From: Alphaproteobacteria bacterium
GTDB taxonomy: Bacteria > Pseudomonadota > Alphaproteobacteria > UBA2966
Assembly: GCA_965242505.1 (NCBI GenBank)
Contig: OZ251449.1
Span: forward strand, 2,803,843-2,867,842
Length of the DNA: 64,000 nt
Reading direction: 5' to 3'
Positions 4,616-64,000 of the stretch are shown in pieces (position 1 is the stretch's first letter; each line of letters begins with the position of its first letter). Both the position numbers and the translations under genes were made by a program. The notes under the pieces were generated by a model, which did no database searches, was not told the origin of the DNA, and was given only the letters and a program-made list of their open reading frames with translations.

Positions 4616-4654
4616 GGGCGTCTCCCTTCAGGCCAGGATGCTGCCGGATTGCCG

Positions 4655-4712
4655 CGAAGGCGGGAACCCCCCTCCCGGCCTCCCCCGCCAGGGGGGAGGG
4701 GCGCGTCGGGGC
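4655..4712. repeat. REP-like element (type A) immediately 3' of DUF1640 paralog 2
   Basis: cccctcccggcctcccccgccaggggggaggggcgcgtcggggcgcggg. Confidence 0.65.
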
Positions 4713-4717
4713 GCGGG

Positions 4718-5218: not shown

Positions 5219-5271
5219 GGGGGCGAAGCTACACCGTCGCGGGGCTGTCCGCAAGCGCGCATCCATTGAGC

Positions 5272-6128: not shown

Positions 6129-6849
6129 GGGGCGGGGCCAGTTTCGGAAAATCCAGAACTGGATCGGCGCCCCGGGCTCCCCGATAGGAAAGGCCGATTT
6201 CGTCCCGCCGGCCCCGGAGACCCTGATGCCCGAACTGGATGCGTGGGAGAAGTACTATCACGCGGAATCCCCCGACGGACTCGTCCAAATGGCCGTGGTC
6301 CACGCTCAGTTCGAAATCATCCATCCCTTCCTGGACGGCAACGGGCGTATCGGACGCATTCTGATACCGCTGTTTCTCGCGGAGAAGAAACTCCTTTCGC
6401 GCCCGATGTTCTATCTATCGTCGTACCTTGAACGACACAGGGACGAATACGTCTCGGGGCTGCGCGCCCTCAGCCGACGGAACGATGGCTGGAACCTCTG
6501 GATAGGCTTCTTTCTGCGCGCGGTCGAGGAGGAAGCGCGAGCGAACGCCGACAAGGCGAAAGCGATCATCGACCTCTACGCGGACCTGAAGGAGAGGGTG
6601 CTGGCTCTCACGCACTCACAATACGCCATCCCGCTCCTCGACCAGATGTTCGAGCGCCCGTTGTTCCGGAGCGCGATGCTTCGGTTTCCCGACGGTCTCG
6701 CGCCGAGTCGGCAGGCCGTGTCCCATCTGCTTCGTCAGTTGCGCAGCAGCGGCATCCTGAAGGTCCTGCGAGAAGGTCGGGGAAGACGCGCCCAAATCCT
6801 GGTCCTGGCCGAGCTCGTCAACATCTGCGAGGGCGAGGAGATCGTTTAG
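6129..6849 (+). pseudogene. Fic/DOC family protein (AMPylase-type), 5'-truncated at the junction with the IS fragment
   Basis: Canonical Fic motif HPFLDGNGRIGR in ...AVVHAQFEIIHPFLDGNGRIGRILIPLFL. The homologous reading frame begins abruptly at about 6128 (..QNWIGAPGSPIGKADFVPP..) with no N-terminal about 100 aa and no own start. Upstream residues of the track ORF are antisense IS sequence. Confidence 0.7.
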
Positions 6850-9654: not shown

Positions 9655-9720
9655 GTCCGCCCCCCTCCCGACCTCCCCCCTGTTAGGGGGAGGAGTATTG
9701 GGTGGTCAGGGGGGAGAGGC
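9655..9720. repeat. REP-like element (type A variant, ctcccccctgttagggggaggag)
   Basis: cccccctcccgacctcccccctgttagggggaggagtattgggtggtcaggggggagagg. Confidence 0.6.
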
Positions 9721-14410: not shown

Positions 14411-14423
14411 GTCCGCGGGGTAC

Positions 14424-15748: not shown

Positions 15749-16172
15749 TCACGGCCTCGCGACGCCGTTTGCGCTCCGCTCCTCCGGCATGACCAAAACA
15801 GAATCAGATAGAATAAAAGAGATAGTGGCTGTAGATGCGCGGTGATCCATGGGGATTCTTTTCGGTTCGGGACTTGTCCAGCGGCCGGTCGGGACGCGGT
15901 TCGGGGCGGCGGGCTCCGCGGGAGTCCGCGTGGATATCTTCCGGGAGCCGCGGAACGGGAGGCGGGAGCGGGCGCGTGAAATCCGGTGACAACGTGAACG
16001 CGGTTCGCGGCCCGGCGGGTCGTTCACGTATTCGGATGCGTACGGGACGTTCCGTCCACAGCTTGACGGACCGGGGAGAGGATTCGCGCGTCCGGGGATC
16101 GATTCGCCGGCGGCCCGGCCCGGCGGAGTTGTCCCGATCTTCCGGGCCGGTTGTCCACGGCCCGCGTCTCCC

Positions 16173-17605: not shown

Positions 17606-18471
17606 GGAACTCCGCCGCGGGACGGATCGCCGGCATCTTCGGCTGGCCCGTCGCGCACTCGCGCTCGCCGGTCCTTCACGGGTTCTGGCTGGACCTGCAC
17701 GGAATCGACGGCGCCTACGTGCCGCTCGCCGTCGCGCCGGAGCACTTCGAGCAGGCGCTCCGCGTCCTGCCGAAGCTGGGGTTTGCCGGCGCCAACGTCA
17801 CCGTCCCGCACAAGGAAGCGGCCCTGGCGGCGGTGGACGAGGCGGACGAGGCGGCCCGGAGGATCGGCGCCGTCAACACCGTCGTGGTCCGCGGGGACGG
17901 CAGCCTCCGCGGATCGAACACCGACGGCTTCGGGTTCCTCGAGAACCTGCGCGAGTCGGCGCCGGAGTGGACGCCGGCCGGCGGCCCCGCGGTCGTCGTC
18001 GGCGCCGGCGGCGCGGCGCGGGCCATCGCGTTCGCGCTCGCCGACGGCGGCGCGCCCGAGGTCAGGATCGTCAACCGGTCGGCGGCGCGGGCCGACGCCC
18101 TGGCCGGCGAACTGGGACCCGCGGCGCGGGCGTGGCCGTGGGCCGACCGCGCCGGGGCGCTGAACGAAGCCGGGCTGCTGGCCAACGCCACGAAGCTCGG
18201 CATGAAGGGCGAAGCGCCCCTCGACCTGCCGCTCGACGCTCTGCCGCGGGAGGCCGTCGTCACCGACGCCGTCTACGTCCCCCTGCATACCGCTCTTCTC
18301 GCCGGGGCGGCGGCGCGCGGCAACCGCGTCGTCGACGGGCTGGGGATGTTGCTGCACCAGGCGCGGCCGGGATTCGAGGCCTGGTTCGGGGTGGCGCCCG
18401 CGGTCACCGGCGAACTGCGCGCCCGCGTCGAGGCCGACCTGGCCCGCGTTTCTCATGCTCCTTCCCTCTGA
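17602..18471 (+). CDS. aroE: Shikimate dehydrogenase (289 aa)
   Basis: The ATG overlaps the maf stop (ATGA). ..IFGWPVAHSRSPVLHGFW..., ..NVTVPHKEAA.., VVVGAGGAARAIAFAL.. Confidence 0.9.
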   Translation: MRNSAAGRIAGIFGWPVAHSRSPVLHGFWLDLHGIDGAYVPLAVAPEHFEQALRVLPKLGFAGANVTVPHKEAALAAVDEADEAARRIGAVNTVVVRGDGSLRGSNTDGFGFLENLRESAPEWTPAGGPAVVVGAGGAARAIAFALADGGAPEVRIVNRSAARADALAGELGPAARAWPWADRAGALNEAGLLANATKLGMKGEAPLDLPLDALPREAVVTDAVYVPLHTALLAGAAARGNRVVDGLGMLLHQARPGFEAWFGVAPAVTGELRARVEADLARVSHAPSL

Positions 18472-18477
18472 CGCCGC

Positions 18478-18545
18478 GACCCCCACCCCGACCCTCCCCC
18501 TGCAAGGGGGAGGGAGAACGTATGGGAGAGGTCGGGAGGGGGGTG
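18478..18545. repeat. REP-like element (type B)
   Basis: gacccccaccccgaccctccccctgcaagggggagggagaacg. Confidence 0.7.
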
Positions 18546-18582
18546 GGCCGCGGCCGCGCGGCGCCGCGCGATCGTCGATCCC

Positions 18583-19215
18583 GTGATCGTGCTCGGCCTC
18601 ACCGGCTCGATCGGCATGGGCAAGACCGCCGCCGCCGCCGCCTTCCGCCAGGTCGGGGCGCCCGTGTTCGACGCGGACGCGGAGGTCCATCGCCTGCTGG
18701 CCGGGGGCGGCGCCGCGGCGGAGGTGGCGGCCGCGTTCCCGGGCGTCGTTCGCGGCGGCGCCGTCGATCGCGAGGCGCTGGGACGGCGGGTGTTCGGCGA
18801 TGCGGAGGCCCTCGCGAGGCTCGAGGGCATCGTCCATCCGAAGGTCCGCGCGGCGCGGGCCCGGTTCGTCCGTCTGGCCGGGTCCCGCGGCGAACGCCTG
18901 GTCGTGCTCGACGTCCCGTTGCTGTTCGAGACCGGCGGGGAGGCGGAGTGCGACTTCGTCTGCGTGGTGAGCGCCCCGCGGTTCGTGCAGGCGGGCCGCG
19001 TGCTGCGGCGTCCCGGCATGACGCCCGAGAAGTTCGCGGGCGTCCTGGCGCGCCAGACGCCGGACGCCGAGAAGCGGCGGCGCGCCGACTTCGTCGTTCC
19101 GACCGGGAACGGAAAGCGCCACGCCTTGCGGCGGATCGGATCCATCGCCACACTGCTGCGGCGGCGCGCCGGAGCCGGACGCGCGCGGCCGCCGATGCGG
19201 CACCGCCTGGCCTGA
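18583..19215 (+). CDS. coaE: Dephospho-CoA kinase (210 aa)
   Basis: GTG start. (M)[14 protein letters not shown]... is the P-loop. Confidence 0.85.
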
Positions 19216-20477: not shown

Positions 20478-21647
20478 ATGTCGAAGTTCGAAGGTCTCCG
20501 CAAGGAGAAGAGAAAGGCCGCGGGCGCGGGCGGGGATCGCCGCCGCTTTCTGAAGGGCGGCGCGGCGGCCGCCGCGGCGGCGACCGCGGTCGCGGCGTTC
20601 CCGCAGGTCTCCAGGGCCCAGACGGCGACCCTGAAGATGCAGACGTCGTGGGGCGCGACCAGTCCGTTCCAGGAAATGGCCAAGCAGTACGTCGACCGCG
20701 TCGAGGCGATGGCCGGCGGCCGGCTGAAGATCGACCTGTTGCCGGCGGGCTCCGTCGTCAAGGCGTTCCAGGTGCAGGACGCCTGCCACAGCGGCGTGCT
20801 CGACGCCACCCACACGGTGACGGCCTACTGGTACTCGAAGAACAAGGCCGCGTCCCTGTTCGGCACCGGCCCCGTGTTCGGCGCCAACGCCGCGCAGATC
20901 CTGGCCTGGATCCACTACGGCGGCGGCAAGGAGCTGCTGACGGAGCTGCAACGGGACATCCTCAAGCTCGACATCCTCAGCTTCTTCGCCATGCCCATGC
21001 CGACGCAGCCGCTGGGCTGGTTCAAGGAGCACATCGAGAGCGTCGAGCAGCTCAAGGGCCTCAAGTACCGCACGGTGGGCCTCGCCACCGACATCATGCA
21101 GGGCATGGGCCTCAAGGTGACCCAGCTCCCCGGCGGCGAGATCATGCCGGCCCTGGAGAAGGGCGTGATCGAGGCGTTCGAGTTCAACAACCCGACGGCC
21201 GACAGCCGCTTCGGAGCGCAGGACGTCTCCAAGCACTACCACATGGGCAGCTACCATCAGGCGGCGGAGTTCTTCGAGCTCATCTTCAACAAGACGAAGT
21301 TCGACTCGCTGCCGAAGGAGCACCAGGCGATCCTCGAGTACGGCGCCGAGGCCGCGAACACGGCCAACTACGGCTGGGCCATGGACCAGTACTCCAAGGA
21401 CCTCCAGTGGCTCATGGCCGACCCGCAGAACGTCAACGTCTATCGCACCGACCAGTCGATCATGAACGCCCAGCTCGACTCCTGGGACAAGGTGCTCGGC
21501 AAGCTCATGGAGCAGGACCCCTTCTTCAAGAAGGTGGTCGAGAGCCAGAGGGCGTGGTCGGAACGGGTGGCGTTCTACGACCTCGTGAACTCGGCCGACT
21601 ACAAGCTCGCCTACGAACACTACTTCCCGGGCAAGCTGCCCTTCTAG
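20478..21647 (+). CDS. TRAP transporter solute-binding protein (DctP family) with a Tat-type signal
   Basis: GGAGGAG RBS. MSKFEGL...GGDRRRFLKGGAAAAAAATAVAAFPQVSRA is a twin-arginine signal. ..LKMQTSWGATSPFQEMAKQYVDRVE.. places it in the DctP family. Confidence 0.9.
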   Translation: MSKFEGLRKEKRKAAGAGGDRRRFLKGGAAAAAAATAVAAFPQVSRAQTATLKMQTSWGATSPFQEMAKQYVDRVEAMAGGRLKIDLLPAGSVVKAFQVQDACHSGVLDATHTVTAYWYSKNKAASLFGTGPVFGANAAQILAWIHYGGGKELLTELQRDILKLDILSFFAMPMPTQPLGWFKEHIESVEQLKGLKYRTVGLATDIMQGMGLKVTQLPGGEIMPALEKGVIEAFEFNNPTADSRFGAQDVSKHYHMGSYHQAAEFFELIFNKTKFDSLPKEHQAILEYGAEAANTANYGWAMDQYSKDLQWLMADPQNVNVYRTDQSIMNAQLDSWDKVLGKLMEQDPFFKKVVESQRAWSERVAFYDLVNSADYKLAYEHYFPGKLPF

Positions 21648-21674
21648 GCGGGGGATCGAGGAGCGCGCGGCGGC

Positions 21675-21790
21675 GCGGGACCGCGTTCGCCCCCCTCCCG
21701 GCCTCCCCCCTGTTCAGGGGGGAGGAGCGCGGACGCTCCCTCCCCCTTGCGGGGGAGGGCCGGGGCGGGGGCCGCCGCCCGCCGCGACGG
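21675..21790. repeat. REP-like elements (type A variant and type B variant)
   Basis: cccccctcccggcctcccccctgttcaggggggaggagcgcggacgctccctcccccttgcgggggagggccgggg. Confidence 0.65.
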
Positions 21791-26947: not shown

Positions 26948-27022
26948 TGGAGCGGGCGAAGGGATTCGAACCCTCGACTTCGACCTTGGCAAGGTCGCGC
27001 TCTACCCCTGAGCTACGCCCGC
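26948..27022 (-). tRNA. tRNA-Gly (anticodon GCC), 75 nt including the encoded CCA
   Basis: Reverse complement is GCGGGCGTAGCTCAGGGGTAGAGCGCGACCTTGCCAAGGTCGAAGTCGAGGGTTCGAATCCCTTCGCCCGCTCCA. The cloverleaf is complete, the anticodon loop is TTGCCAA, and the T-loop is TTCGAAT. Confidence 0.9.
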
Positions 27023-49019: not shown

Positions 49020-51602
49020 TCAGTTCGACGGCGCCGTCACGCGGCACTCCTCCGCCTGGCAGGCGCCGAAGCTGCCGAACGCGGCCACACGCCGGTTCTG
49101 GTGGGTGGAGTCCGTCTCGATGCGCCACCAGCCGGCGGTTTCGAGCTTGTCCGCGGGACCGTAGAGGGCGCCGCCGTACTCGCCCTTGTTCCACGACGTA
49201 TCCCACGGGTCCGCATGGCCCGTGTAGCTGCCGTCGGCTGCGATGTCGCCCTCCGCCAACAGGATCGCGAACCCTTCATGGGAATGGCCATCCCCTCCGT
49301 TTCTGAGGAACTGGTTCTTCTGCCAGATGCCGTTTTCGAGCGCTTGCAGGTTGGCGACGTTACCCATGATCTTGTTGGCGCCGGTGGGAATGCCTTCGCC
49401 CGTGCAGGCGCCGGCGCCGATGCAGGCGTTGAGGGTCACGTCGCCCCGCAGGCGGGCGAAGTGGAGGACGTGCGGCGCGCTTTCGCTGCCCACCGAATTG
49501 CTCCTGGGATGCAGGATCATCCCCATGGTCCTGCCCCGGAACGTGGCCTCGATCGAGGTCGCGCGGTCGGTCGTCTTCGCGTCGTCCGCGTCGCGGAAGG
49601 CGTCGTAGCCGAAGTGGAAGCCCTGCAAGAGGCCCGGCCGGGGATACTCGTCGATGTAGTCGGTGTACATGAACAGGCCGTAGGCCGCATAGGACAGGTA
49701 ACGGTCGGCGTCGTCGCCCGCATCGTCCGCATCCGCGCCCGCGTCGAGGCCGCCATGGTTCGACAGCCAGACCCGGAGGTCGCCCAGCGCGCCATGGGCG
49801 GCGAGGCGGCGGCCGTCGCTGTCTTCGGGGTCGGGCTGGGGCTGGTTTCCGCTCAACCCGTAGCGCGAGGCCCAGTAGTAGTTGGGTTCGCCGTCGGGGT
49901 CGGCGTAGGGCGCGCCCCAGGAGATCTCCGCGTCGCTGCGGTTGAAGTCGTAGCAATACGCCGGATAGGCCCCGCTGCAATCGTCCGACATCACGTTGTT
50001 CCCGGAGTCCTGCGTCCCCCAGGCGCCCGGCGAGTTGATCCCGTCCCGGCCCCGGCTCGACGACCTGTCGAGGTCGTGCTTGAAGAGGCTCATGACGGCG
50101 CCTTCCCCGCCGGTCCTGAAGACCATGCCGTCGGGCGTGAAGCGGACCGAGCTGGTCACCGGATTCAGGTAATGGCGTTGGTAGCTACCCGACGGGGTGA
50201 TGGCGTTGCCGTCGGTGTCGGTCGTCGCGCCCTGGACGACCGGGATCTTCGGCGTGGCGCCGCCTTCGTCGTCGGTGGCGCCTTCGGGGCTGGGCCTGAT
50301 GTCGCCGCGCATGGAGACCGCCCGCAGCGGGAAGTGATCGCTCTCGCCCGTCGCGGCGGGCGAGAGCACCGTCTTGCCGGCGGCCCAGGCGACCGCCTCC
50401 GTCTGGATGTCCAGTCCGTTCGGGTTCGGGCAGGGCATGTTCACGGTGCAGTCGGCGAACGCCGCCTCCCTGGGCGTGAGCGTGACCCGCGCGGTGAAGG
50501 GCGCGCCCCCCGTCTGTCCGGGGGGGACCTGGTTCAGGATCGAGGGAGGGGCCGCCAACCCGGGGTCGGCGGCGATGCGGGTGGCGGCCCAGGCGCGCGT
50601 CGCGGTCTCGGCCGCCATCGCCGCCGCCGCCCCTGCGTCGGCCTCCGTCCGCTGGTCGTCCGTGGCCGCCGCGGCCAGAGCCGAGGCGGCAGCCGTTGCG
50701 AGCGCCGCCGCGGCCGTCCTCTCCGCCTCGCGCGCATTCACGAAGGCCGTCTGCGCGGCCGCCAGCGCCGTCTGCGCCGCCTGTCTCCGCGTCTGGGCGG
50801 CCTCGCGGTCCGCCGTTTTCCGTTCGTCCGTGGTGTCGCCGTCCCAGGCCGCGGCGGTCGCCTGGAAGTCCGCCTCCGCCTTCTCCAGGGCCGCCTGGGC
50901 CGCCGCCAGCGCCGTCCCGGCCTGCCCGGTCGCGGCCTGCGCCGCCGTCAAACCGGTCTGCGCCGAACGCAACGCCTCCTCCTCCGCTGTCGGAGTCGGC
51001 GGCTCCGGCGCCGCCGGCGGTCGCGCTCGCGCTTCGGCCAGTTCCTCGCGCAGCAGCGGCACCAGGGAGACTTGAGCGGTGGTCAGCAAGCCCTGGGCCT
51101 GCAACAGCACGGTTTCGACCGCGTCGGTGGGGTTGGCCTCCAGCGCCGCGGTTATCTGGGTCTGGGCGGCGTCCAGCGCCGCCTGCGCCTGGTCCAGCGA
51201 CGTGTGCGCGCTGTCGAAGGAAACGGTCCCCCCCGACCCGAACGCCGTATTGGTCGTATCCAGGGCCGCGATGACCGCCCCCAAGGCGTTGTCGACCACC
51301 ATCAGCACCGTGCGGACATTCTCCGGCAGCTGCGGCAGATTATCCCGGAGATTATCCCGGCCCTCGTTCAGCTTCTCGCGGGCTTCCGGGCGCCGTTCGG
51401 GGTTGGTGGCCGCCGCCAGCGAGTCGCGAAGGTCCGCCAGCGCGGTTTCGGCGGCTGCCGTCTTCTGCCTCTCGGCCTCGAGGGTGTCCTCGCCGATGCG
51501 CACCGTCCTGGTTTCGGTGCAGGCGCCCAGCGCCAGAGCCATGCCGCAAATCAACACCGCCGTAAGTCTGGAGATCGTCATCGAACGGGAACCCCCCCTC
51601 AT
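49020..51602 (-). CDS. Large surface-type lipoprotein (about 853-860 aa): signal/lipobox, Ala-rich coiled-coil N-terminal half, C-terminal TbpB/fHbp-like beta-barrel domain
   Basis: (MRGGSRS)MTISRLTAVLICGMALALGAC has the lipobox LGAC. Residues about 30-330 are Ala/Gln/Thr-rich helical repeats. The C-terminal about 250 aa (..GFAILLAEGDIAADGSYTGHADPW..YGGALYGPADKLETAGWWRIE..AAFGSFGA) resemble the 8-strand barrel or handle of TbpB/HpuA/fHbp-type surface lipoproteins (family recalled from memory). A 958-aa antisense shadow ORF lies opposite. Confidence 0.7.
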   Translation of the reverse strand: MRGGSRSMTISRLTAVLICGMALALGACTETRTVRIGEDTLEAERQKTAAAETALADLRDSLAAATNPERRPEAREKLNEGRDNLRDNLPQLPENVRTVLMVVDNALGAVIAALDTTNTAFGSGGTVSFDSAHTSLDQAQAALDAAQTQITAALEANPTDAVETVLLQAQGLLTTAQVSLVPLLREELAEARARPPAAPEPPTPTAEEEALRSAQTGLTAAQAATGQAGTALAAAQAALEKAEADFQATAAAWDGDTTDERKTADREAAQTRRQAAQTALAAAQTAFVNAREAERTAAAALATAAASALAAAATDDQRTEADAGAAAAMAAETATRAWAATRIAADPGLAAPPSILNQVPPGQTGGAPFTARVTLTPREAAFADCTVNMPCPNPNGLDIQTEAVAWAAGKTVLSPAATGESDHFPLRAVSMRGDIRPSPEGATDDEGGATPKIPVVQGATTDTDGNAITPSGSYQRHYLNPVTSSVRFTPDGMVFRTGGEGAVMSLFKHDLDRSSSRGRDGINSPGAWGTQDSGNNVMSDDCSGAYPAYCYDFNRSDAEISWGAPYADPDGEPNYYWASRYGLSGNQPQPDPEDSDGRRLAAHGALGDLRVWLSNHGGLDAGADADDAGDDADRYLSYAAYGLFMYTDYIDEYPRPGLLQGFHFGYDAFRDADDAKTTDRATSIEATFRGRTMGMILHPRSNSVGSESAPHVLHFARLRGDVTLNACIGAGACTGEGIPTGANKIMGNVANLQALENGIWQKNQFLRNGGDGHSHEGFAILLAEGDIAADGSYTGHADPWDTSWNKGEYGGALYGPADKLETAGWWRIETDSTHQNRRVAAFGSFGACQAEECRVTAPSN

Positions 51603-51605
51603 TAC

Positions 51606-51886
51606 GTGAAGAGGCCCCGTGAAGAGGCCCCGTGAAGAGGCCCCGTGAAGAGGCCCCGTGAAGAGGCCCCGTGAAGAGGCCCCGTGAAGAGGCCCCGTGA
51701 AGAGGCCCCGTGAAGAGGCCCCGTGAAGAGGCCCCGTGAAGAGGCCCCGTGAAGAGGCCCCGTGAAGAGGCCCCGTGAAGAGGCCCCGTGAAGAGGCCCC
51801 GTGAAGAGGCCCCGTGAAGAGGCCCCGTGAAGAGGCCCCGTGAGGCCCCGTGAAGAGAGGCCCCGTGAAGAGGCCCCGTGAAGAGT
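51606..51886. repeat. 13-bp perfect tandem repeat gtgaagaggcccc, about 18 perfect copies plus about 3 degenerate copies, immediately 5' of the lipoprotein gene start
   Basis: Read directly in sequence. Perfect copies run from 51606 to about 51842, then the variants gtgaggcccc / gtgaagagaggcccc / gtgaagaggcccc / gtgaagag. The unit length is not a multiple of 3. Confidence 0.95.
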
Positions 51887-52029
51887 ATGACCCTATCCTA
51901 TCACGAACGACGCCGCAAGGTCAAGATTCGTCCCGGTTCAATACATAAACATACGAACATATGAGACGCCGCGCAGGCCGCATTGTCTCATGCCGGGGGT
52001 GGGCCGAGGATCGCGCGGCGTTGCGGGGC

Positions 52030-52100
52030 GACGGAGACCCCCCTCCCGACCTCCCCCCTGTCAGGGGGGAGGAGTGTGGATGGTCAGGGGGGAGGAACGC
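52030..52100. repeat. REP-like element (type A)
   Basis: cccccctcccgacctcccccctgtcaggggggaggagtgtggatggtcaggggggagg. Confidence 0.7.
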
Positions 52101-52169
52101 CGCTGGACCCCCGCGGGCCGGTCCGGCATTATCGACCGCGAACGGACTGCGCAGGGAGGACTGGCGGCC

Positions 52170-54299: not shown

Positions 54300-54770
54300 C
54301 TCCGTTGGGGGGCGGGTTCGGCGCGCCGATCCGCACACTTCGCACACCTTCCGGGACCTCGTTCTCCCTCTCCTGTTCTCCCTCTCCCTTCCAATCCGCA
54401 CACCTCGCACACCGGCAGGGACCCCCCTCCCGACCTCCCCCCTGCCAGGGGGGAGGAGTTTGAAAGGGGATCCGCACACTCCGCACACCCTCCCGTCCTT
54501 TTTATTTCTCCCTCTCCCTTGCAGGGGGAGGGTCGGGGTGGGGGTCACCGGCGTTGCGGCGGGGCGCGTCCATCCGGACCCCCCTCCCGACCTCCCCCCT
54601 GTCAGGGGGGAGGAGTATGGATGGGCAGGGGGAGAAGTGTGGATGGGCAGGGGGGAGGAGTTTGAAAGGGGATCCGCACACTCCGCACACCCTCCCGTCC
54701 CTTTTATTTCTCCCTCCCCCTGGCAGGGGGAGGGTCGGGGTGGGGGTCGCGCCGATCCGCACACTCCGCA
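54300..54770. repeat. Cluster of 7 or more REP-like elements (types A and B), including a duplicated block of about 170 bp
   Basis: tctccctctcccttcc..., cccctcccgacctcccccctgccaggggggaggagtttgaaaggggatccgcacactccgcacaccctcccgtcc...ccctctcccttgcagggggagggtcggggtgggggtc; the block at 54400-54560 recurs at 54590-54760. Confidence 0.75.
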
Positions 54771-56167: not shown

Positions 56168-56284
56168 GACCCTGCCCCGTGACGGTCGCGGCGGCCGGCG
56201 CGCGACGCTCGACCCGCACCCTACCCGAACCCGGCGGTCGGGGGAAGGGATCGCGCGCCGGAGCGGCGGACGGCGCCCTCAGTC

Positions 56285-56440
56285 GTCCAGGGTCCGTTCG
56301 CGCTCCTCTCCCCCGGCGCGACCCCCACCCCGACCCTCCCCCTGCAAGGGGGAGGGAGAACGAGGGGGACGGGGGGCCGTTGACGCTCCTCCCCCCTGAC
56401 AGGGGGGAGGTCGGGACGGGGGTGGATCGCGATCCCGCAA
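56285..56440. repeat. REP-like elements (type B, type A)
   Basis: gacccccaccccgaccctccccctgcaagggggagggagaacgagggggacgg...cctcccccctgacaggggggaggtcgggacggggg. Confidence 0.7.
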
Positions 56441-56482
56441 CACCGCGCAATCCTCGATCCCTGCCGGCATGAGAAATGCGGG

Positions 56483-58009
56483 TCAGTCGTCCAAGGTCCG
56501 CGCGACGCGGAACCCGAAGTTGTCGTTGCGGTACTCCAGCGGGAACCGGACCCGCTTGGCGGAGCGGACGTCCTTCGGATGGCTCCTCCAGGAACCGCCG
56601 CGCATGACGCGATGCCCGCAGTTTCCGCTCAACCTCGGCGATCCGTCGGCGGGCGCGCCCCGGTAGCTGTCGTTCCAGCAGTCCTCGACCCACTCCCAGG
56701 CGTTTCCGTGAACGTCGTGCAGTCCGAAGGCGTTCGGCGGGAACCCGCCGACGGGCAGCGTCCGCTTCCGGTACGCGCCCGTCCCGCCCTCTCCATACGA
56801 CGACGTCCCGTTGTAGTTCGCCTGGTCCGGCGTGATCGTCGAACCCGTGTGGAACGGCGATCGACCGCCCGCCCGGGCGGCGTATTCCCATTCCGCTTCG
56901 CTGGGCAGGCGATAGGCCCGGCCCGTCTTCTCGCCGAGCCACGCGGCGTAGGCCCGCGCCGTGTTCCAGTCGACGCAGACGGCGGGATCGTCCTCGCCCT
57001 GCGGATATCCGGGATCGCGCCAGCTCTTCGAGGAGTCCCGGCGTCCGCCCGAGCCGGTTCGCACGTAGCAGGAATCTCCCGCGTCGTGCCCCGTCTCCTC
57101 GACGAAGGCCGTGAACTCCCTTCGCGTCACCTCGAACCGGCCGATGGCGAACGCGGCCACGGCGACCTCGCGCGCCGGTCCCTCCGCGGCGTCGCGGGCC
57201 GATTCGCCCGGCGGCGAACCCATGACGAACGCGCCGCCCGGCGCCGTCACCATCTCCGGACACGTCTCGCAGTCCCTGAACGCCGCGCCCGGCGGCCGGT
57301 CCGGCAACGACAGCATCAGGAAGGCCGCGAGGCCGCCGAGGGCCAGGAGCGACGCGCCCGACCATGCGAGCCGCCACCCGGGGATACGGACGGGTCCCGC
57401 GGCCAGGGGGACGAGGTCCCGCGCGCCGGCGGCCGGGACGGCCGCGGGCTCCAGCCCCACGTGGCGCAGGACCTCGTTGGCGTCGCGGACGCCCAGGACC
57501 TCGCCGATGCCGGACGCGCCGTGATCGGCGGCGTCTTCCAGGTTCGCCGCGGGAACGACCAGCGTCACGGGAGCGGAGCCTTCCGCGGCGCGGCCGGCGA
57601 AACGCTCCCGCGTCGCGCGGAGCTTCTCCCCGACGAAATCCACCTCCCCCACCCGCAGATCGACGTCGACGGTCCCCGTGGCCCACAGGACCGCGTCCGC
57701 GCTTTCGCCGGGCCCCGCCAGGCGCCCCGCCCGGTCCAGCGCGTGCGCGACCAGTACGGACAGCTGCCAGGAGTGGCCGTCGCCGATCTCGCCGGAGGCG
57801 TCCAGCCGGAAGCCGCCGGGCCCGAAGGGGCCCAGGGCCCGCTCGATCACGCCCGAGGGCTGGCGCACGAACGCGTCGTAGTCGGCGCTGATGGGCAGGA
57901 CCGACGTCGTCCGGCCCAGGCAGATCTGCGAGACGGGCGCCGCCTCGCGCGTGATCCGCTCGATCTGAACGGGTCCCCTGGTGGTCGCGGCGAAGACGTG
58001 GACCTTCAT
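56483..58009 (-). CDS. Membrane protein: cytoplasmic N-terminal domain of unknown type (about 250 aa), single TM helix, and a periplasmic FGE-sulfatase (SUMF1/EgtB/PvdO-type) domain; 508 aa; third gene of an uncharacterized operon
   Basis: MKVHVFAATTRGPVQIERIT..GDGHSWQLSVLVAHAL.. is the N-domain, with no family recognised. WSGASLLALGGLAAFLMLSL is the TM helix. ..FVMGSPPGE...FAIGRFEVTRREFTAFV..AVCVDWNTARAYAAWL..YRLPSEAEWEYAARAG..GNAWEWVEDCW..RVMRGGSW.. is the FGE-sulfatase fold. The ATG overlaps the upstream stop (ATGA). Confidence 0.7.
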   Translation of the reverse strand: MKVHVFAATTRGPVQIERITREAAPVSQICLGRTTSVLPISADYDAFVRQPSGVIERALGPFGPGGFRLDASGEIGDGHSWQLSVLVAHALDRAGRLAGPGESADAVLWATGTVDVDLRVGEVDFVGEKLRATRERFAGRAAEGSAPVTLVVPAANLEDAADHGASGIGEVLGVRDANEVLRHVGLEPAAVPAAGARDLVPLAAGPVRIPGWRLAWSGASLLALGGLAAFLMLSLPDRPPGAAFRDCETCPEMVTAPGGAFVMGSPPGESARDAAEGPAREVAVAAFAIGRFEVTRREFTAFVEETGHDAGDSCYVRTGSGGRRDSSKSWRDPGYPQGEDDPAVCVDWNTARAYAAWLGEKTGRAYRLPSEAEWEYAARAGGRSPFHTGSTITPDQANYNGTSSYGEGGTGAYRKRTLPVGGFPPNAFGLHDVHGNAWEWVEDCWNDSYRGAPADGSPRLSGNCGHRVMRGGSWRSHPKDVRSAKRVRFPLEYRNDNFGFRVARTLDD

Positions 58010-58557
58010 CCGTCGATGAATATCTCGCTTCCGGGGTCGCGAAGCGCCGCCAGCACGTCCGACCCGTTCTCGACGAGGATCTGGATCGTTCCGGCATGGG
58101 GCTCCGGCAGCGCGATCCGGCGGCACGTGTCGTCGCCGACGAACACCGCCAGCCATCTCGGATGACGGCCCGGCTCGTCCAGGGAGATGACGACGTAGGT
58201 CTGCGCCGGTTCGGCGCGCGACTGCTCGAAGCGGATGCGGCAGCCGGGGGCGGCGCGGCGCGCGACGGTCCCCGCCGCCGCCGCCGCGAGCTCGGGGATG
58301 CGATAGCCGGCGATCTTTCCGGTGAGGCGCCGCAGTTCGGCGCGAAGCGCGGGACTCTCGCGCAGCGCGGCCTCGAGGCCCGGGTCTTCGGCGCGCGCGC
58401 CGGTGACGTAGAGGTACAGGCGCCGCGGGGTGACGCGCCCGCCGGGCGCCGCGCCGGCGGCGGGGCTGCCCAGCGACGCTTCCGCCACGAGCGCGTCGAA
58501 CACGCGTTCCGCGACCGCGAGGGCGTCGTCTCCGGGCGTCTCGATCCGTTCGTTCAT
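58006..58557 (-). CDS. Hypothetical protein (183 aa), middle gene of the operon
   Basis: MNERIETPGDDALAVAERVFDALVAEASLG..RLYLYVTGARAEDPGLEAALRESPALRAELRRLTG..YVVISLDEPGRHPRWLAVFVGDDTCRRIALPEPHAGTIQILVENGSDVLAALRDPGSEIFIDG. It is the C-terminal part of a 690-aa, otherwise Arg-rich, track ORF. ATGA overlaps at both ends. Confidence 0.5.
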   Translation of the reverse strand: MNERIETPGDDALAVAERVFDALVAEASLGSPAAGAAPGGRVTPRRLYLYVTGARAEDPGLEAALRESPALRAELRRLTGKIAGYRIPELAAAAAGTVARRAAPGCRIRFEQSRAEPAQTYVVISLDEPGRHPRWLAVFVGDDTCRRIALPEPHAGTIQILVENGSDVLAALRDPGSEIFIDG

Positions 58558-60065
58558 CGCGCGACTCCGTAGATGCGGGCGAACTGTTCGCTGAACACGC
58601 CGCGGTCGCGGGCGAACCGGCCGTCGAGACCGGCCTCGTCCTCCTCCGCCCGTTCGGATACCCGCAGGAATGCGCGGATCTGGTCGCTGATCGTCGCCAG
58701 CGCCCCGGCGCCGGCCTCGTACAGGGCGTCCGATCCGGGCCGGCCCACGACCGTGTTCTCGAATCCCTTGCGCGAGAGTCCCGCGAAGGCGCGCTTCGCG
58801 AGGTCGCGCGCGACCCGCGACCGCTCGTCCCCGGGAACCCGTTCCGCGTCCTCGTCCGCCCGCAGCGCCACGTGCAGCGCCGCGCGCAGCGCGTCGTTGA
58901 CGCGCGCGTCCAGCGCGGCGAGCCGCTGGCGCCATTCCCGGTACGTCTCGGCGCCGGCGCAGGCGACGAGCTCGTTCAGGGCGTCGCCGGCGTCCCGCCG
59001 CCTCGCGGCCTGCGACAGCCGGGCCTGGACGTCTCCGAAGACCTCGGCGCGCATCAGGGACCACGGCAGCCGGCGCGCCCGCGGGCCGTGCTCCATCAGA
59101 CGGTCCAGGGCGGCCAGGTCCACCTTGTTCAGGAACCGGACGCCATCGAGAGGCTGCTCCCGCAGGAGCGAAAGCGGGGACGCCCACGCGGCGGTCGTCT
59201 CCGCGTCGTCCAGGAGCCGGGCGACGTCGACCTCGCCCGCCTCGCGGTCGGGGCCGACCGGACGGGCGCGTTCGACGGCCTCGCGGTCCATCGCGACGTC
59301 GAGGGCCGAAAGGAACGCCATGTAGGCGTCGAACACGCTTCGGAACAGACGGAAGTTCCTCGCCTCGTCGTCCACGGACTTCTCCCGCCAGAACGCCAGG
59401 ACCGTGGCGTCCTCGACGACCAGCGTCGCCGCCCCGGACCTCGCGTAGTCGAGCAGCTCCCGGAACTTGCCCTGCGTCTGGATGCTCGGCAGGTGCTCCC
59501 TCAGGTACGCGTACAGGCGCCGTTCGATCCCGTTCGCCGCGTCCCGGACACCGCTGCCCGTCACCGGCGGCTTCAGCATGGCCTGGAACTCGTCGTCGAC
59601 GGCGGCGTAGCCGACGGCGCCGCAGAGGAACTCGAACAGGGCGGCGAGGACCGGCATCCCGGAGAAGCCGACGTTGAAGACGCCGTCGTCGTAGCGCGCG
59701 GCGACCCCCTCCGCCGTCAGCTCGCATCCGGGACGCCGCCAGCCCGAGGCGGCCACGGCGTTCTCTATCCAGCCCCGGAACCCGGGACCGGTGGCGCGTT
59801 CCGGCCCCAGCAGCAGATGTTCGTAGGAACCGCGGCGCGGCGCGCACGAGTCGGCCACGTTGACCAGGTGGCACAGTTGCAGGACGGGCGCGGCGTAGGA
59901 CCGGCAGACGATCAGCCGGTTGAGGCGGCGGCACGCCCTGGCGGAATAATGGGCGGCGCCGTCCGGGGTCGTGGAGTCCGCCACCGCGCGGAGGGCGGCG
60001 CGCAACTCGCCGCTCTGTCCCGCCTCCAGGACGAGGCTCGCCGCGCGTTTCACTTCGAGCGACAT
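58554..60065 (-). CDS. Hypothetical protein (503 aa), first gene of the operon
   Basis: MSLEVKRAASLVLEAGQSGELRAALRAV... Composition and codon usage are normal (not an Arg/Pro shadow). No Walker or other motif was recognised. The stop overlaps the next ATG. Confidence 0.6.
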   Translation of the reverse strand: MSLEVKRAASLVLEAGQSGELRAALRAVADSTTPDGAAHYSARACRRLNRLIVCRSYAAPVLQLCHLVNVADSCAPRRGSYEHLLLGPERATGPGFRGWIENAVAASGWRRPGCELTAEGVAARYDDGVFNVGFSGMPVLAALFEFLCGAVGYAAVDDEFQAMLKPPVTGSGVRDAANGIERRLYAYLREHLPSIQTQGKFRELLDYARSGAATLVVEDATVLAFWREKSVDDEARNFRLFRSVFDAYMAFLSALDVAMDREAVERARPVGPDREAGEVDVARLLDDAETTAAWASPLSLLREQPLDGVRFLNKVDLAALDRLMEHGPRARRLPWSLMRAEVFGDVQARLSQAARRRDAGDALNELVACAGAETYREWRQRLAALDARVNDALRAALHVALRADEDAERVPGDERSRVARDLAKRAFAGLSRKGFENTVVGRPGSDALYEAGAGALATISDQIRAFLRVSERAEEDEAGLDGRFARDRGVFSEQFARIYGVAR

Positions 60066-60249
60066 GTCCGCGTTTCACCTCGGCGCTCTCGATACCGACG
60101 GGACCGCAGAGTACAGGAACCGGGCGGACGTGTGGCGTCGAAGATCGGAAACCCGCGCGCCTGGCGCGACCGCCGCCGGTGGGTTAACTTCGGCGCCCGG
60201 GGCGCGGCCCGCGCCGCGTCCGGGCCGGAAGGCCCCGGAGGGAGCATCC

Positions 60250-60498
60250 ATGCCGTTCTACAAACCGGACCTCGGCGCCAACCCCGACGACCCGTTCGCC
60301 CGCGACGCCGACGGCAGGCTGGTCAGGCGGACGTTCTGGCTCGACATGAGCGACCGCTCCCTGGCGCTCGCCATGACCCGGGGGGTCGGCGCCGCTCTGA
60401 CCGCGGCGGAGAAGCGCGCCCATCTCGAGGACGTCGGCCGTTCCCACCTGATCGACGAGGTCTGCGCGCCGGAGATCCTGCCGCCCGAGCGCGGCTGA
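60250..60498 (+). CDS. Small hypothetical protein (82 aa), divergent from the operon
   Basis: GGAGGGAGCATCC-ATG. MPFYKPDLGANPDDPFARDADGRLVRRTFWLDMSDRSLALAMTRGVGAALTAAEKRAHLEDVGRSHLIDEVCAPEILPPERG. Confidence 0.45.
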   Translation: MPFYKPDLGANPDDPFARDADGRLVRRTFWLDMSDRSLALAMTRGVGAALTAAEKRAHLEDVGRSHLIDEVCAPEILPPERG

Positions 60499-60519
60499 CG
60501 CGGCGCGGCGGGCCGGGGC

Positions 60520-61660
60520 CGTATGCGCTCCTCTCCCCTGCCGTGACCCCCACCCCGACCCTCCCCCTGCAAGGGAGAGGGAGAACAAGAGGGGACGGGA
60601 AAGGGCCATTGACGCTCCTCCCCCCCTGACCATCCATACTCCTCCCCCCTGACAGGGGGGAGGTCGGGAGGGGGGTCCGCGGCCCCGCAACGCCGTTCGC
60701 GCTCCGCTCCCCTGGCGTGACCCCCACCCCGACCCTCCCCCTGCAAGGGGGAGGGAGAAGAAGGGGGGACGCGGAGGGAGCCGTCGACGCTCCTCCCCCC
60801 TGACAGGGGGGAGGTCGGGAGGGGGGTCCGCGGCCCCGCAACGCCGTTCGCGCTCCGCTCCCCTGGCGCGACCCCCACCCCGACCCTCCCCCTGCAAGGG
60901 GGAGGGAGAACGTAAGGGGACGCGGAGGGAGCCGTCGACGCTCCTCCCCCCTGACCATCCATGCTCCATCCCCCCCTGCCCCCCTGACCATCCATACTCC
61001 TCCCCCCTGACAGGGGGGAGGTCGGGAGGGGGGTCCGCGGCCCCGCAACGCCGCCGTTCGCGCTCCGCTCCTCTGGCGTGACCCCCACCCCGACCCTCCC
61101 CCTGCAAGGGAGAGGGAGAACAAGAGGGGACGGGAAAGGGCCATTGACGCTCCTCCCCCCTGACCATCCATGCTCCATCCCCCCTGACCATCCATACTCC
61201 TCCCCCCTGACAGGGGGGAGGTCGGGAGGGGGGTCCGCGGCCCCGCAACGCCGCCGTTCGCGCTCCGCTCCCCTGGCGCGACCCCCACCCCGACCCTCCC
61301 CCTGCAAGGGAGAGGGAGAACAAGAGGGGACGGGAGGAGGGCGGACCGCGGCCCCGCAACGCCGTTCGCGCTCCGCTCCCCTGGCGGGACCCCCACCCCG
61401 GCCCTCCCCCTGCAAGGGAGAGGGAGAACAAGAGGGGACGGGAGGGGGGTGGACGCGGCCCGCAACGCCGTTCGCGCTCCGCTCCTCTGGCGTGACCCCC
61501 ACCCCGGCCCTCCCCCTGCAAGGGAGAGGGAGAAGAAGGGGGGAGGTCGGGAGGGGGGTGGACGCGATCCTGCAACGCCGTTCGCGCTCCGCTCCCCTGG
61601 CGTGACCCCCACCCCGACCCTCCCCCTGCAAGGGGGAGGGAGAACGTAAGGGGATGGAGG
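60520..61660. repeat. About 1.1-kb tandem array of 7 or more composite REP/BIME-like units (each about 110-210 bp, holding one type B and one type A palindrome plus a conserved linker ccgcggccccgcaacgccgttcgcgctccgctcccctggcg)
   Basis: The units start at about 60523, 60675, 60826, 61039, 61237, 61348, 61448 and 61570. Some carry an extra insert, ctgaccatccatgctccatcccccctgaccatccatactcc. No unique spacers are present. Confidence 0.85.
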
Positions 61661-61694
61661 GGTGGACCGCGGTTCTGCGACGCCGCGCGGTCGC

Positions 61695-64000
61695 CTACCG
61701 CGCGGCGGCGAGCAGGATGCCGGTGGCTTCCGCGGTGGCGATGGTGATGGAGCGCAGGTCCTCGGGCTCGATGTTGTGGACGTTCGTCTTGCCGGCGCAG
61801 CGCGCCATCATCGAGCACTCGCTGTTGGACGCCTTGAGGTAGTTGGCGGCGCCCGCGCGCAGCTCCTCGCGCGTCAGGTCGGGCGGGAAGACGATGGCCT
61901 GGCGGTTTCCCGACGGCGCGATCTCGCCGCCGAGCGCGAGCCCCATCGAGACGCCGACGATGCCGACGCGGCAGCCGAGCCCGAGCAGCTTGGCGAGGTC
62001 GGTCCCCGACCGGATGCCGCCGAAACAGGCGATCTCGATGTCGCCCTCGCGCTTCAGGGCGCGCAGCCTGCGCACCGTGTCGCGCACCGCCGACAGGTCG
62101 GGAGCGCCTTCGAGCTCGGGCCACTCGCTCTCGATTCCGATCGTCGAGTCGACGACCAGAAGATCGAAGCCGTTGTCGAGGGCGAACGGGACCGCCGCGT
62201 CGACGTTGGATGCGCGGACCACGAGCCCGAGGGCCTGTCCCTCCCGCGCCCGCACCGCCGGCGGCGGGCGGAAGGCCTCGCCGGTCACGTGGACGACGGC
62301 GGCGGCGTCCGGGTCCGGCGCGCTCTCGCCGGGCGCGGCGAGCTGCAACCAGGGGACGTCCCGATGCAGGCGGCGGAAGCCCACGTAGGCGACGCCGGAG
62401 TCCACCATGCCGGCGGCCAGTCCCTCGCGGACCTCGTCGGGGGCGCCGTCGAAGCCGGTCGCCATCAGGGGGTACTTCATCGTCAGGGACCCGCCCGCGA
62501 CGCCGGTTTCCGTGACGCACGAGTCGCGGTAGGGGTCGATCACGAGGCGCGACAGGTTGGCCGAGAGGAACACCAGGTCGTCGATCGTCGGCGGGCGGTC
62601 CTCCGGGAACGGGTTCTCGCGGTTCTGCATGCGCTTGAACAGCATGGCCCGCTGTCCGGCCTCGTCGGACGGCTCCATGCGCGCCATGGCGAAGATGTCC
62701 TCGCGGTTCCACACCGTGTAGTCGGCCGAGCCGTTCTCCGCGTCGCAGCGGTAGCAGCGCGCCGCCTCGTCGCGCGCCGTCCGGGCGTCGTAGCGCGACT
62801 CGATCTCCGGGAACGCCGCCGGGTTCTCGCCGAGGCCGTGGAACTCCTGCTCCTGGCGCGGAAAGAGCTCCCACTTGGGATCCTGGGCGACGGGCGCGCG
62901 CCGCGTGCGATAGGGGGTGCGGTAGGGCGCGGGGTTCTCGTCGCCTTCCAGATACGCCTTGACGTAGTAGGCCGCGCGATGGCCGTGGTTCATGGCCATG
63001 ACGATGGTCGAGCCCCCGAAGGCGCCGTCCCCGGCCGCGAAGACGCCGGCGTCCGCCGTGCGCATCGAATCGAAGTCGGCGCGGACGCGGTCCCGGTCCA
63101 TGAGGCCGAGGCGGTCGAGGTGGCCGCTCTCCGCCTGCTGGCCGACCGCGGAGATCACCATGCCGCAGGGGATGTCGCGCTCCGTCCCCGCCACGGGGAT
63201 GGCCCGGCGGCGGCCGTCCTCCTCCGGGTCTCCCATCCTGGTGATGACGCACCGCAGCGCGATCTCGTTGCCGCTTTTCACCACGGCGACCTGCTGGGTG
63301 TTGTAGACGAACTCGACGCCTTCCTTGACGGCGCCGTGGAGCTCGTCCTTGCGGGCGGGGATCTGCTCCGGTCCCCGGCGATAGACGACCTTGACGCGCT
63401 TGCAGCCGGGCAGGCGCCTGGCCACGCGGCAGGCGTCCATGGCGACGTCGCCGCCGCCGACGACCACGACGGTCTCGGGCAGCTCCGGCCGCTCGCCCCC
63501 GTTGACGCGCCGCAGGAAGGACACGCCGTCGACGACGCGCGGGTCGTCGTCGCCGGGCACGCCCATGGTCTTGCCCCACCAGGAGCCGATGCAGAGCAGC
63601 ACCGCGTCGTGCCGTTCCTTGAGCTGGTCGAGGGTCACGTCGCGTCCGAGCGCGGCGCCGAGGTGGACCTTGACCCCTGGACAGCGGTCGAGGATCCGGT
63701 CCATGTCCTCCTGGATGATCCCCGCCGGAAGCCGGAAGGCCGGGATGCCCCAGACCATCATGCCGCCGAGGCGGTCGGTCATCTCGTAGAGGTGGACTTC
63801 GTAGCCCGCCTCGGCCAGGTCCTGCGCGGCGGTCATGCCGGCCGGTCCCGAACCGACGATGCCCACGGTCTCGTCCCTGGTGACGGCGACGGGGGGCTGG
63901 CGGCGGTCCCTTCCGAGCTGGTCCATGACGAAACGCTTGAGGTTGCGGATGGCCAGGGGGCCGTCGGAGTCGGCGCGGCGGCAGGCCGGCTCGCACGGGG
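61695..64000 (-). CDS. Fused GltD-like (Fe-S/FAD/NAD(P)H) oxidoreductase plus glutamate-synthase FMN-domain-like protein; the N-terminus continues beyond the right window edge
   Basis: ..VGIVGSGPAGMTAAQDLAEAGYEVHLYE.. (FAD), ..VVVVGGGDVAMDACRVA.. (NAD(P)H), and the C-terminal ..GFDLLVVDSTIGIESEW...IACFGGIRSGTDLAKLLGLGCRVGIVG.. (glutamate-synthase FMN/TIM-barrel family). The in-frame sequence upstream of the listed Met (..PCEPACRRADSDGPLAIRNLKRFV) has no stop and Cys spacing typical of an Fe-S region, so the real start is off-window. Confidence 0.8.
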   Translation of the reverse strand, partial: PCEPACRRADSDGPLAIRNLKRFVMDQLGRDRRQPPVAVTRDETVGIVGSGPAGMTAAQDLAEAGYEVHLYEMTDRLGGMMVWGIPAFRLPAGIIQEDMDRILDRCPGVKVHLGAALGRDVTLDQLKERHDAVLLCIGSWWGKTMGVPGDDDPRVVDGVSFLRRVNGGERPELPETVVVVGGGDVAMDACRVARRLPGCKRVKVVYRRGPEQIPARKDELHGAVKEGVEFVYNTQQVAVVKSGNEIALRCVITRMGDPEEDGRRRAIPVAGTERDIPCGMVISAVGQQAESGHLDRLGLMDRDRVRADFDSMRTADAGVFAAGDGAFGGSTIVMAMNHGHRAAYYVKAYLEGDENPAPYRTPYRTRRAPVAQDPKWELFPRQEQEFHGLGENPAAFPEIESRYDARTARDEAARCYRCDAENGSADYTVWNREDIFAMARMEPSDEAGQRAMLFKRMQNRENPFPEDRPPTIDDLVFLSANLSRLVIDPYRDSCVTETGVAGGSLTMKYPLMATGFDGAPDEVREGLAAGMVDSGVAYVGFRRLHRDVPWLQLAAPGESAPDPDAAAVVHVTGEAFRPPPAVRAREGQALGLVVRASNVDAAVPFALDNGFDLLVVDSTIGIESEWPELEGAPDLSAVRDTVRRLRALKREGDIEIACFGGIRSGTDLAKLLGLGCRVGIVGVSMGLALGGEIAPSGNRQAIVFPPDLTREELRAGAANYLKASNSECSMMARCAGKTNVHNIEPEDLRSITIATAEATGILLAAAR

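Follow-up and report, generated by a model that had tools for sequence, protein, structure and literature searches.

Between two convergent genes in a 64,000-nt stretch of alphaproteobacterial chromosome (contig OZ251449.1; "the window" hereafter means this whole stretch) lies a tandem array of about 1.2 kb, with limits at 60519-61694 (+). This array is probably a non-coding tandem cluster of a repetitive extragenic palindromic (REP) or REPIN-type family that has grown in situ and is mainly selfish or neutral. The family is an undescribed REP-type family, and the array that it forms is an ordinary kind of bacterial repeat cluster. An initial annotation had placed an array of composite palindromic units, resembling REPs and bacterial interspersed mosaic elements (BIMEs), at 60520-61660. 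An array does exist roughly there, although its limits are those given above, and the REP/BIME-like reading is upheld by the 9-bp stems and 5-nt loops of the palindromes, their high copy number, their location between called genes, their inverted pairing, and their conserved linkers.

When split at the conserved anchor CGCGCTCCGCTCCCCTGGCG, the array resolves into eight head-to-tail units of 174, 151, 210, 200, 108, 106, 110, and 108 bp. The self-alignment that had been proposed as a check gives the same picture: a repeat search and an alignment of the units recover eight copies in register, at spacings of 174, 151, 210, 200, 108, 106, and 110 bp, which replaces the earlier count of "seven or more" units with eight. 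Tandem Repeats Finder describes three overlapping arrays with periods of 151 (97% matches), 200 (92%), and 108 (90%). The type B palindrome (CCCTCCCCCTGCAAGGGRGAGGG) is found in all eight units, and five of these eight copies are an imperfect variant ending in GGGAGAGGG. Within the array, the type A palindrome (CCTCCCCCCTGACAGGGGGGAGG) is confined to units 1-4, at 60641, 60792, 60999, and 61199. Thus, the expectation that every unit would carry both palindromes holds for B but not for A, since units 5-8 have B only. The extra inserts noticed earlier in some units are present in units 1, 3, and 4. Each is made up of a 24-bp sub-repeat, CTGACCATCCATRCTCCWTCCCCC, in one to about 2.5 copies, and this sub-repeat duplicates the 5' arm of A together with its left flank. 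The units are arranged as follows:

60524..60697 (+), unit 1: long, 174 bp; B at 60559-60581 and A at 60641-60663; one extra 24-bp sub-repeat
60698..60848 (+), unit 2: the simplest long unit, 151 bp; B at 60733-60755 and A at 60792-60814
60849..61058 (+), unit 3: long, 210 bp; B at 60884-60906 and A at 60999-61021; sub-repeats at 60946-61007
61059..61258 (+), unit 4: long, 200 bp; B at 61094-61116 and A at 61199-61221; sub-repeats at 61149-61211
61259..61366 (+), unit 5: short, 108 bp; B at 61294-61316; A palindrome missing, A head remnant retained
61367..61472 (+), unit 6: short, 106 bp; B at 61402-61424
61473..61582 (+), unit 7: short, 110 bp; B at 61508-61530; junction GGGGGGAGGTCGGGAGG
61583..61690 (+), unit 8: short and last, 108 bp; B at 61618-61640; tail ending 4 nt away from the right flanking gene's stop codon

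The basic monomer of the family is about 40 nt long: its C-rich head (GACCCCCNNCCCGAC) precedes a palindrome whose 9-bp stem closes a 5-nt loop. At 23 nt, these palindromes agree with the short (20-40 nt) imperfect palindromes, with a GC-rich stem and a small loop, that characterize REP and BIME elements. Type B is the monomer on the plus strand (GACCCCCACCCCGAC-CCTCCCCC-TGCAA-GGGGGAGG), and type A is a diverged copy on the minus strand (as its reverse complement, GACCCCCCTCCCGAC-CTCCCCCC-TGTCA-GGGGGGAG). When all copies are aligned with their flanks, the reverse complement of A is homologous to B, including the 14-nt C-rich head. Consequently, the long unit is an inverted REP doublet of the REPIN/BIME kind, in which B is followed by an inverted A and the heads face outward. 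This B-to-A orientation is identical in all of the approximately 12 B+A pairs, and the linkers between the inverted partners are conserved, with 54-121 bp separating the start of B from the start of A. Within the array, the monomer profile matches eight times on the plus strand and four times on the minus strand. The short units keep a remnant of the A head (…GGGAGGGGGGTGGAC…) without the A palindrome, and in strains L007 and L009 the single element has the junction GGGGGAGGTCGG…, which is one G shorter than the GGGGGGAGGTCGGGAGG of unit 7. A short unit is a B monomer plus an A head remnant, and it was most likely produced by deletion between G-runs.

The architecture of the units suggests how the array could have grown. 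Each unit opens with a 22-bp motif, L1 (TTCGCGCTCCKCTCCCCTGGCG), and solo elements carry L1 at the left and an L1-like copy at the right, so that they are bracketed by direct repeats. Direct repeats around an element are a classical substrate for tandem amplification, and the L1 and L1-like copies that bracket a solo element would provide one. Unequal recombination or replication slippage between these 22-bp repeats could thus have multiplied an element already resident at the site. The inter-unit junction of the main array also joins the two-unit arrays at 14.1 kb and 20.0 kb, and tandem growth is therefore a property of the family.

Variation among the eight units is also informative. Units 1 and 4 share the left two-fifths of their variant sites, units 3 and 4 share the right half (60979-61135 versus 61179-61335, 99% over 157 nt), and units 2 and 3 share linker variants. 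The B-tail types run a-b-c-a-a-a-b-c along the array, and these tails pair unit 2 with unit 7 and unit 3 with unit 8. Because the shared variants form a mosaic, they argue for unequal recombination among the units, and the pattern points to what may have been repeated rounds of unequal crossing-over or gene conversion. In situ growth would then have been followed by later recombination among units, which may have generated the present mosaic.

The array fills the space between two genes whose 3' ends face each other. It starts 21 nt past the stop codon of the first and ends 4 nt from that of the second, where its last unit contributes to an inverted repeat:

60250..60498 (+), left flanking gene, 82 aa, converging on the array; GC by codon position 0.72/0.51/0.94
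61695..64000 (-), right flanking gene, 844-aa GltD-like FAD/NAD(P) oxidoreductase (Pfam); its 5' end lies past the window, and its full-length homologues have 844 aa
61678..61710 (no strand assigned), 14-nt inverted repeat whose arms come from the last unit's tail and the final codons of the 844-aa gene, with the stop codon (61695-61697) in the 5-nt loop

Twelve metagenome contigs encode the exact 82-aa protein and have the left-hand genes of the window, and four of these contigs (L006-L009) read through the site. All four have one element there (B only, or B+A in L008), and next comes htpG, either directly or after a methyltransferase gene. Two further contigs, L011 and L014, have the array-type left junction seen in the window. 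L011 ends inside the first B palindrome, while L014 extends one unit further and has a first unit that is like unit 3 of the window, not unit 1. A contig from the same sample as L011 (L003) is 99.0% identical to window positions 61691-64000 and ends at 61691, the last base before the array. These contig ends and unit differences establish that the array arrangement exists in nature, that it differs between strains, and that it breaks short-read assemblies on both sides. The comparison of the array between strains that the initial annotation had recommended therefore finds one element in L006-L009 and, in L014, a first unit that resembles unit 3.

On the other side of the array, the 844-aa protein is 92% and 89% identical in relatives L004 and L005, where the next gene is GS-like and no sequence past the 844-aa gene stop codon is shared with the window. 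The array lies exactly at a synteny break, or rearrangement junction. The single-element contigs, the contig breaks, and the GS-like gene in these relatives together place the array at a rearrangement junction that is strain-variable. Ectopic recombination between dispersed copies of the family could have joined two chromosome regions at this point. An earlier suggestion that such arrays are recombination hotspots gains indirect support from the synteny break, the strain differences, and the mosaic units.

A second strain-variable junction that abuts an element was noticed in the same contigs. The N6/N4 DNA methyltransferase gene (L006 8562-9488; also in L009) adjoins the single element downstream of the 82-aa gene, and it is absent in L007 and L008.

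The family is abundant throughout the window. Searches for the palindromes with up to three mismatches give 34 and 35 strand-matches in these 64 kb versus none in 100 dinucleotide-preserving shuffles. The resulting 40 palindrome sites fall at about 17 loci, and with 12 of the 40 the array is, as had been claimed, the largest concentration in the window. The monomer profile recovers about 44 monomers. All copies are outside the genes called here, and inverted doublets are the commonest arrangement. A 16-nt motif, CCCGCRTTTCTCATGC, forms the left end of two copies and appears inverted at the right end of four or five, but no single window copy clearly has it at both ends. The profile, together with a blastn comparison to contig L001, additionally picks up degenerate monomers missed by the palindrome search at 21647-21775, 9660-9696, and 4666-4699, and one degenerate pair sits at the dctP/dctQ junction. 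We also considered whether the ATG in the right-end motif CATGAGAAATGCGGG might be a gene start carried by the element, and this idea was rejected since most copies lead from it into antisense or non-coding DNA.

Comparison of filled and empty sites indicates that copies of the family have moved. The clearest case is a solo composite near the array:

56297..56482 (+), solo 186-bp B+A composite, absent from six relatives at 95-98% identity (blastn and site sequences)

Because those six relatives lack it, the family has moved recently, after the divergence of strains that are 95-98% identical. The composite sits just past the stop codon of a gene with an FGE-sulfatase domain and has on either side an 18-bp direct repeat, TCAGTCGTCCAGGGTCCG (56279-56296 and 56483-56500; one mismatch), which is an apparent target duplication. 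This repeat holds the last five codons and the stop codon of the gene, and the insertion re-creates them. The target also carries CAGGGTCCG, a 9-mer that other copies have just ahead of their left end. In a second filled/empty pair (an A-only element at about 51960-52105 versus L006), there is no long duplication. With an 18-bp duplication in one pair and none in the other, a fixed-stagger transposase is not supported. Insertion might instead proceed by microhomology-guided joining, or a paralogous locus might supply the sequence by gene conversion. In L006, the sequence of the empty site (ATGAGACGCCTTACGGGCC) is similar to the A-only element's own right-end motif, inverted.

The distribution of the family is narrow. 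No A or B palindromes are present in 71 kb of L004, L005, and a sister species (L023 and L024), in comparison with 40 in the 64 kb of the window. The sister species has the same gene order and a DnaQ that is 88% identical. Judging from these sequences, the family has apparently expanded within one species-level lineage. A chromosome assembled from a metagenome (L001, 66% GC) does carry a B+A composite that is 72-94% identical to window copies and has unrelated flanks, and on this account the family is older or wider than this species. A B-monomer scan of genome contigs gave at least two loci among the matches listed, which samples the taxonomic spread only. The 22-mer at the tandem junction has seven matches in the JGI metagenome collection, all of them chance matches in coding DNA without palindromes, and a distant-mode blastn search of a plasmid database returns only four partial matches of about 40 nt.

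Stable structures are predicted for the units. The RNA fold of a long unit (unit 2, 151 bp; about 150 nt) has a predicted energy of -92 to -95 kcal/mol, and in the minimum-energy fold of the minus strand B pairs with A to give one long hairpin (-95 kcal/mol per 150-nt unit). Each B monomer also contains a canonical short-loop G-quadruplex motif on the minus strand that is the complement of its head and 5' arm, and a regular-expression scan finds these along the array:

60547..61626 (-), G-quadruplex motifs GGGGGAGGG(T/C)CGGGGTGGGGG, eight in total with one in each B monomer

The head and 5' arm make up a strong G-quadruplex or i-motif sequence (GGGGGAGGGTCGGGGTGGGGG) that is invariant in 18 of 21 B copies, and the 3' arm is variable in 8 of 21. 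Of 35 G-quadruplex motifs in the window, 30 fall in element loci, which account for 6% of its bases. Hairpins and quadruplex motifs could impede polymerases and promote recombination, and might thereby make the site prone to rearrangement and to assembly breaks. As a by-product, the stable hairpins and minus-strand quadruplex motifs probably hinder read-through and 3' exonucleases, which is the weakest step in the mechanism that we propose.

A more far-reaching proposal is that the family is an undescribed and currently active REPIN-like type that is independent of a REP-associated tyrosine transposase (RAYT) and self-amplifies into arrays that drive rearrangements. We think this unlikely, and the case for it comes from the missing GTAG/CGTC tags, the conserved quadruplex/i-motif head, and targets that resemble the element's own terminus. 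Insertion at own-terminus-like sites with a long duplication would fit template switching or microhomology, not a transposase.

It is improbable that the array was instead built by serial independent insertions next to or into existing copies, a form of self-targeting. The 186-bp composite does show that the family is mobile, and the match between CAGGGTCCG in its target and the left-end 9-mer of other copies suggests that it may home to sequences like its own ends. Unordered clusters in Pseudomonas fluorescens SBW25 form in just this way, by REPINs inserting into or beside REPINs (PMC3116915). However, the seven inter-unit junctions of the array are identical in sequence and in register, and neighboring units share long blocks of 97-99% identity across these junctions. 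Target duplications are not visible for the individual units, and the mosaic variants fit unequal crossing-over.

It is very unlikely that the array is a selected element that acts between the 82-aa and 844-aa genes as a transcription barrier, an mRNA 3'-end stabilizer, or a Rho/ribosome trap, in which case its copy number would be under selection. E. coli REPs stabilize upstream mRNA and can attenuate transcription. The array sits precisely where two 3' ends converge, 21 nt from one stop codon and 4 nt from the other, and this position would suit such a function, as would the very stable predicted hairpins and the hairpin over the stop codon of the 844-aa gene. Yet the array has no U-tract terminator, eight copies give no obvious gain over the one that suffices at this site in conspecific strains, the homologous regions of sister species have no elements, and the orientation of the family with respect to transcription is inconsistent. 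The single copy in conspecific strains, the lack of any in sister species, and the inconsistent orientation are the reasons for disfavoring a selected role, and the most economical reading is repeat DNA that is selfish or neutral and has structural side effects. A search for a sigma-70 promoter in the array found none. A known RNA family was also dismissed as a candidate, because a permissive Rfam scan of the array yielded only sub-threshold matches to miRNA-like or generic hairpins.

Several observations weigh against the interpretation of the array as a selfish or neutral cluster grown in situ. The window yielded no transposase able to move the family, and the RAYT/Y1 transposase domain (PF01797) is absent among the roughly 50 open reading frames (ORFs) that cover it. 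The array haplotype and the single-element haplotype have different spacers between the stop codon and L1, and the two may consequently not descend from one insertion. The direction of change, amplification here versus collapse elsewhere, is also not rooted by an outgroup. With regard to structural side effects, the structure z-scores are modest (-0.9 to -2.2), and stable folding is expected of any sequence that has C- and G-runs like these. Compensatory variation is absent, and the only common stem variant GGGAGAGGG (8 of 21 B copies) unpairs a position on the plus strand. The search for an intrinsic terminator pattern in the array, mentioned above for its U-tract, was negative. Finally, the orientation of B monomers relative to neighboring genes is inconsistent in the window, which argues against a function at the RNA level.

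Two other possibilities can be dismissed. There is next to no chance that the array encodes a repetitive Pro/Gly/Arg-rich protein: crossing ORFs of 175-457 aa do traverse it on both strands, but long stop-free stretches are expected at 70% GC, units of 151, 200, 106, and 110 bp would shift the frame, and GC content hardly changes with codon position (0.72-0.75) in any of the six array frames, versus 0.72/0.50/0.94 in the 82-, 503-, and 844-aa genes. The initial annotation had already called the long ORFs here spurious, and the array indeed has no codon-position signal in any frame; the 1270-aa ORF that it cited (60184..63996, minus strand) exists and overlaps the real 844-aa gene out of frame. 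[quoted passage not shown] Its short palindromic repeats are spaced roughly regularly, but the spacing varies from 106 to 210 bp, the segments between palindromes are 83-187 bp long and repeated at approximately 90-99% identity rather than unique, the same units are found singly throughout the window, and no Cas domain was detected among the roughly 50 window ORFs scanned. Unique spacers with nearby cas genes had been named in advance as what would speak for a CRISPR, and the repeated spacers and the lack of Cas domains in these ORFs agree with the earlier judgment that it is not one.

Several other features of the window deserve description. An element at 18440-18583 lies between aroE and coaE and donates the final codons and stop of aroE (18440-18471; …EADLARVSHAPSL). 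In sister species L023, which has no element here, aroE (…EADLKGLSRP) and coaE overlap. Two IS481-family elements with DDE transposases are present at 14421-15750 and 5270-6254, and their ends are unrelated to those of the repeat family. The copy at 14.4-15.7 kb splits the tail of a repeat element (TCCGCGG, then the insertion sequence, then CGGCCTCGCGACGCCGTTTGCGCTCC), so the repeats serve as targets for insertion sequences. REPs are known as targets of this kind. Two paralogous CCDC90-like genes with 33-bp internal repeats (3738-5473; repeats at 3947-4065 and 4971-5084) form a duplicated pair beside an IS481-like element and an A-type palindrome at 4277.

A hypervariable intergenic region occupies 54355-54754, between the RNase HII-fusion and tautomerase genes (compared with L006, L009, and L010). 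The number and order of its A and B monomers vary by strain, and each monomer is bracketed by a GATCCGCACACTYCGCACACC motif (9-bp repeat TCCGCACAC). A 13-bp tandem repeat, CGTGAAGAGGCCC, spans 51605-51885 (21.7 copies, 96% matches), where a long ORF without stops (49020-51920, minus strand; no Pfam match) has its 5' end. Contig L006 begins within this repeat, which therefore also breaks assemblies.

Between the solo composite and the array (56483-60498) is an uncharacterized gene set that is kept across strains. It encodes 508-, 183-, and 503-aa proteins together with the divergent 82-aa ORF. The 508-aa protein has a C-terminal FGE-sulfatase/PvdO-like domain, and the 82-, 183-, and 503-aa proteins have no match in Pfam, PADLOC, or NCBIfam. 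The rest of the window is ordinary alphaproteobacterial chromosome (70.5% GC) with genes that include leuS, rho, hemH, hemE, aroE, coaE, dnaQ, dctPQM, ftsK, and amtB, and a tRNA at 26951-27022 is its sole Rfam match at gathering thresholds. The closest named relatives of its DnaQ, at 62-66% identity, are from Rhodospirillales-type metagenome-assembled genomes and Magnetospirillum.

Recognition of the array accounts for the spurious long ORFs called in a 70% GC genome, for short-read assembly breaks in this population, and for the possibility that CRISPR finders flag the site. The array is a clean natural case, in an uncultured alphaproteobacterium, of a REP-type family that has expanded in one species-level lineage. 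The family also marks strain-variable junctions, namely the rearrangement at the array and the presence or absence of the methyltransferase gene. If the quadruplex-forming head or the duplication-generating insertion should turn out to be general, they would broaden the view of how REP-like sequences spread without RAYTs.

Comparison with known repeat families reveals partial similarity to several. Like bacterial miniature inverted-repeat transposable elements (Correia/NEMIS, RUP, ERIC), the elements here have lengths of 130-190 bp and internal hairpins, and insertion near gene ends can donate codons and a stop, as in the aroE tail. One insertion has a flanking direct repeat. Those elements make target duplications of fixed length, whereas here there are 18 bp in one case and none in another, and no copy has clean terminal inverted repeats at both ends.

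The CGTC-tagged REP superfamily is found mostly in Alphaproteobacteria (Di Nocera et al. 2013, PMC3733652), and its members are mostly head-to-head dimers that are rarely clustered (PMC3733652). Our family shares the alphaproteobacterial host, the lack of an evident dedicated transposase, and the stem and loop dimensions (9 bp and 5 nt here; 8-9 bp and 4-5 nt in the superfamily). It differs in having no CGTC, TGTC, or CCTC tag, with flanks of CCGA/CGAC at one end and of AGAA or AGTA at the opposite end. Its stems start with CCC or CCT, so that the first two stem positions are C/G and not the A/T-first pattern of the superfamily. Its dimers have their heads outward, and clusters are common.

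The BIME-2 elements of E. coli, reportedly described by Gilson et al. in 1991 and by Bachellier et al., are closer in organization. Two types of palindromic unit alternate in them with conserved linkers, in tandem to about 12 units, and they are extragenic and often at the 3' ends of genes. Units 1-4 of the array likewise alternate B (+) and A (-) with conserved linkers. Unlike BIME-2, units 5-8 have a single orientation, the sequences are unrelated, and the linkers are longer (54-121 bp from the start of B to that of A).

The closest parallels are with P. fluorescens SBW25, which has ordered tandem REPIN clusters and tandem arrays of 12 REPs (Bertels & Rainey 2011, PMC3116915). The present family differs from the REPIN-RAYT system in that it has no GTAG/CTAC (every copy has CCGA/CGAC as the four bases ahead of its stem) and no RAYT in the 64-kb window. 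An apparent 18-bp duplication at one clean insertion is also unlike IS200/IS605-type Y1 transposition, which makes no target duplication. Half of the array units have lost one monomer, and the host is an uncultured alphaproteobacterium of 70% GC. In other respects, the two systems agree. Both contain inverted REP doublets able to form one long hairpin, both have ordered head-to-tail doublet repeats that include flanking sequence, and both have spread in a lineage-specific manner. Their clusters are even of similar size, with up to 12 REPs or >700 bp in SBW25 and 12 monomers in 1.2 kb here.

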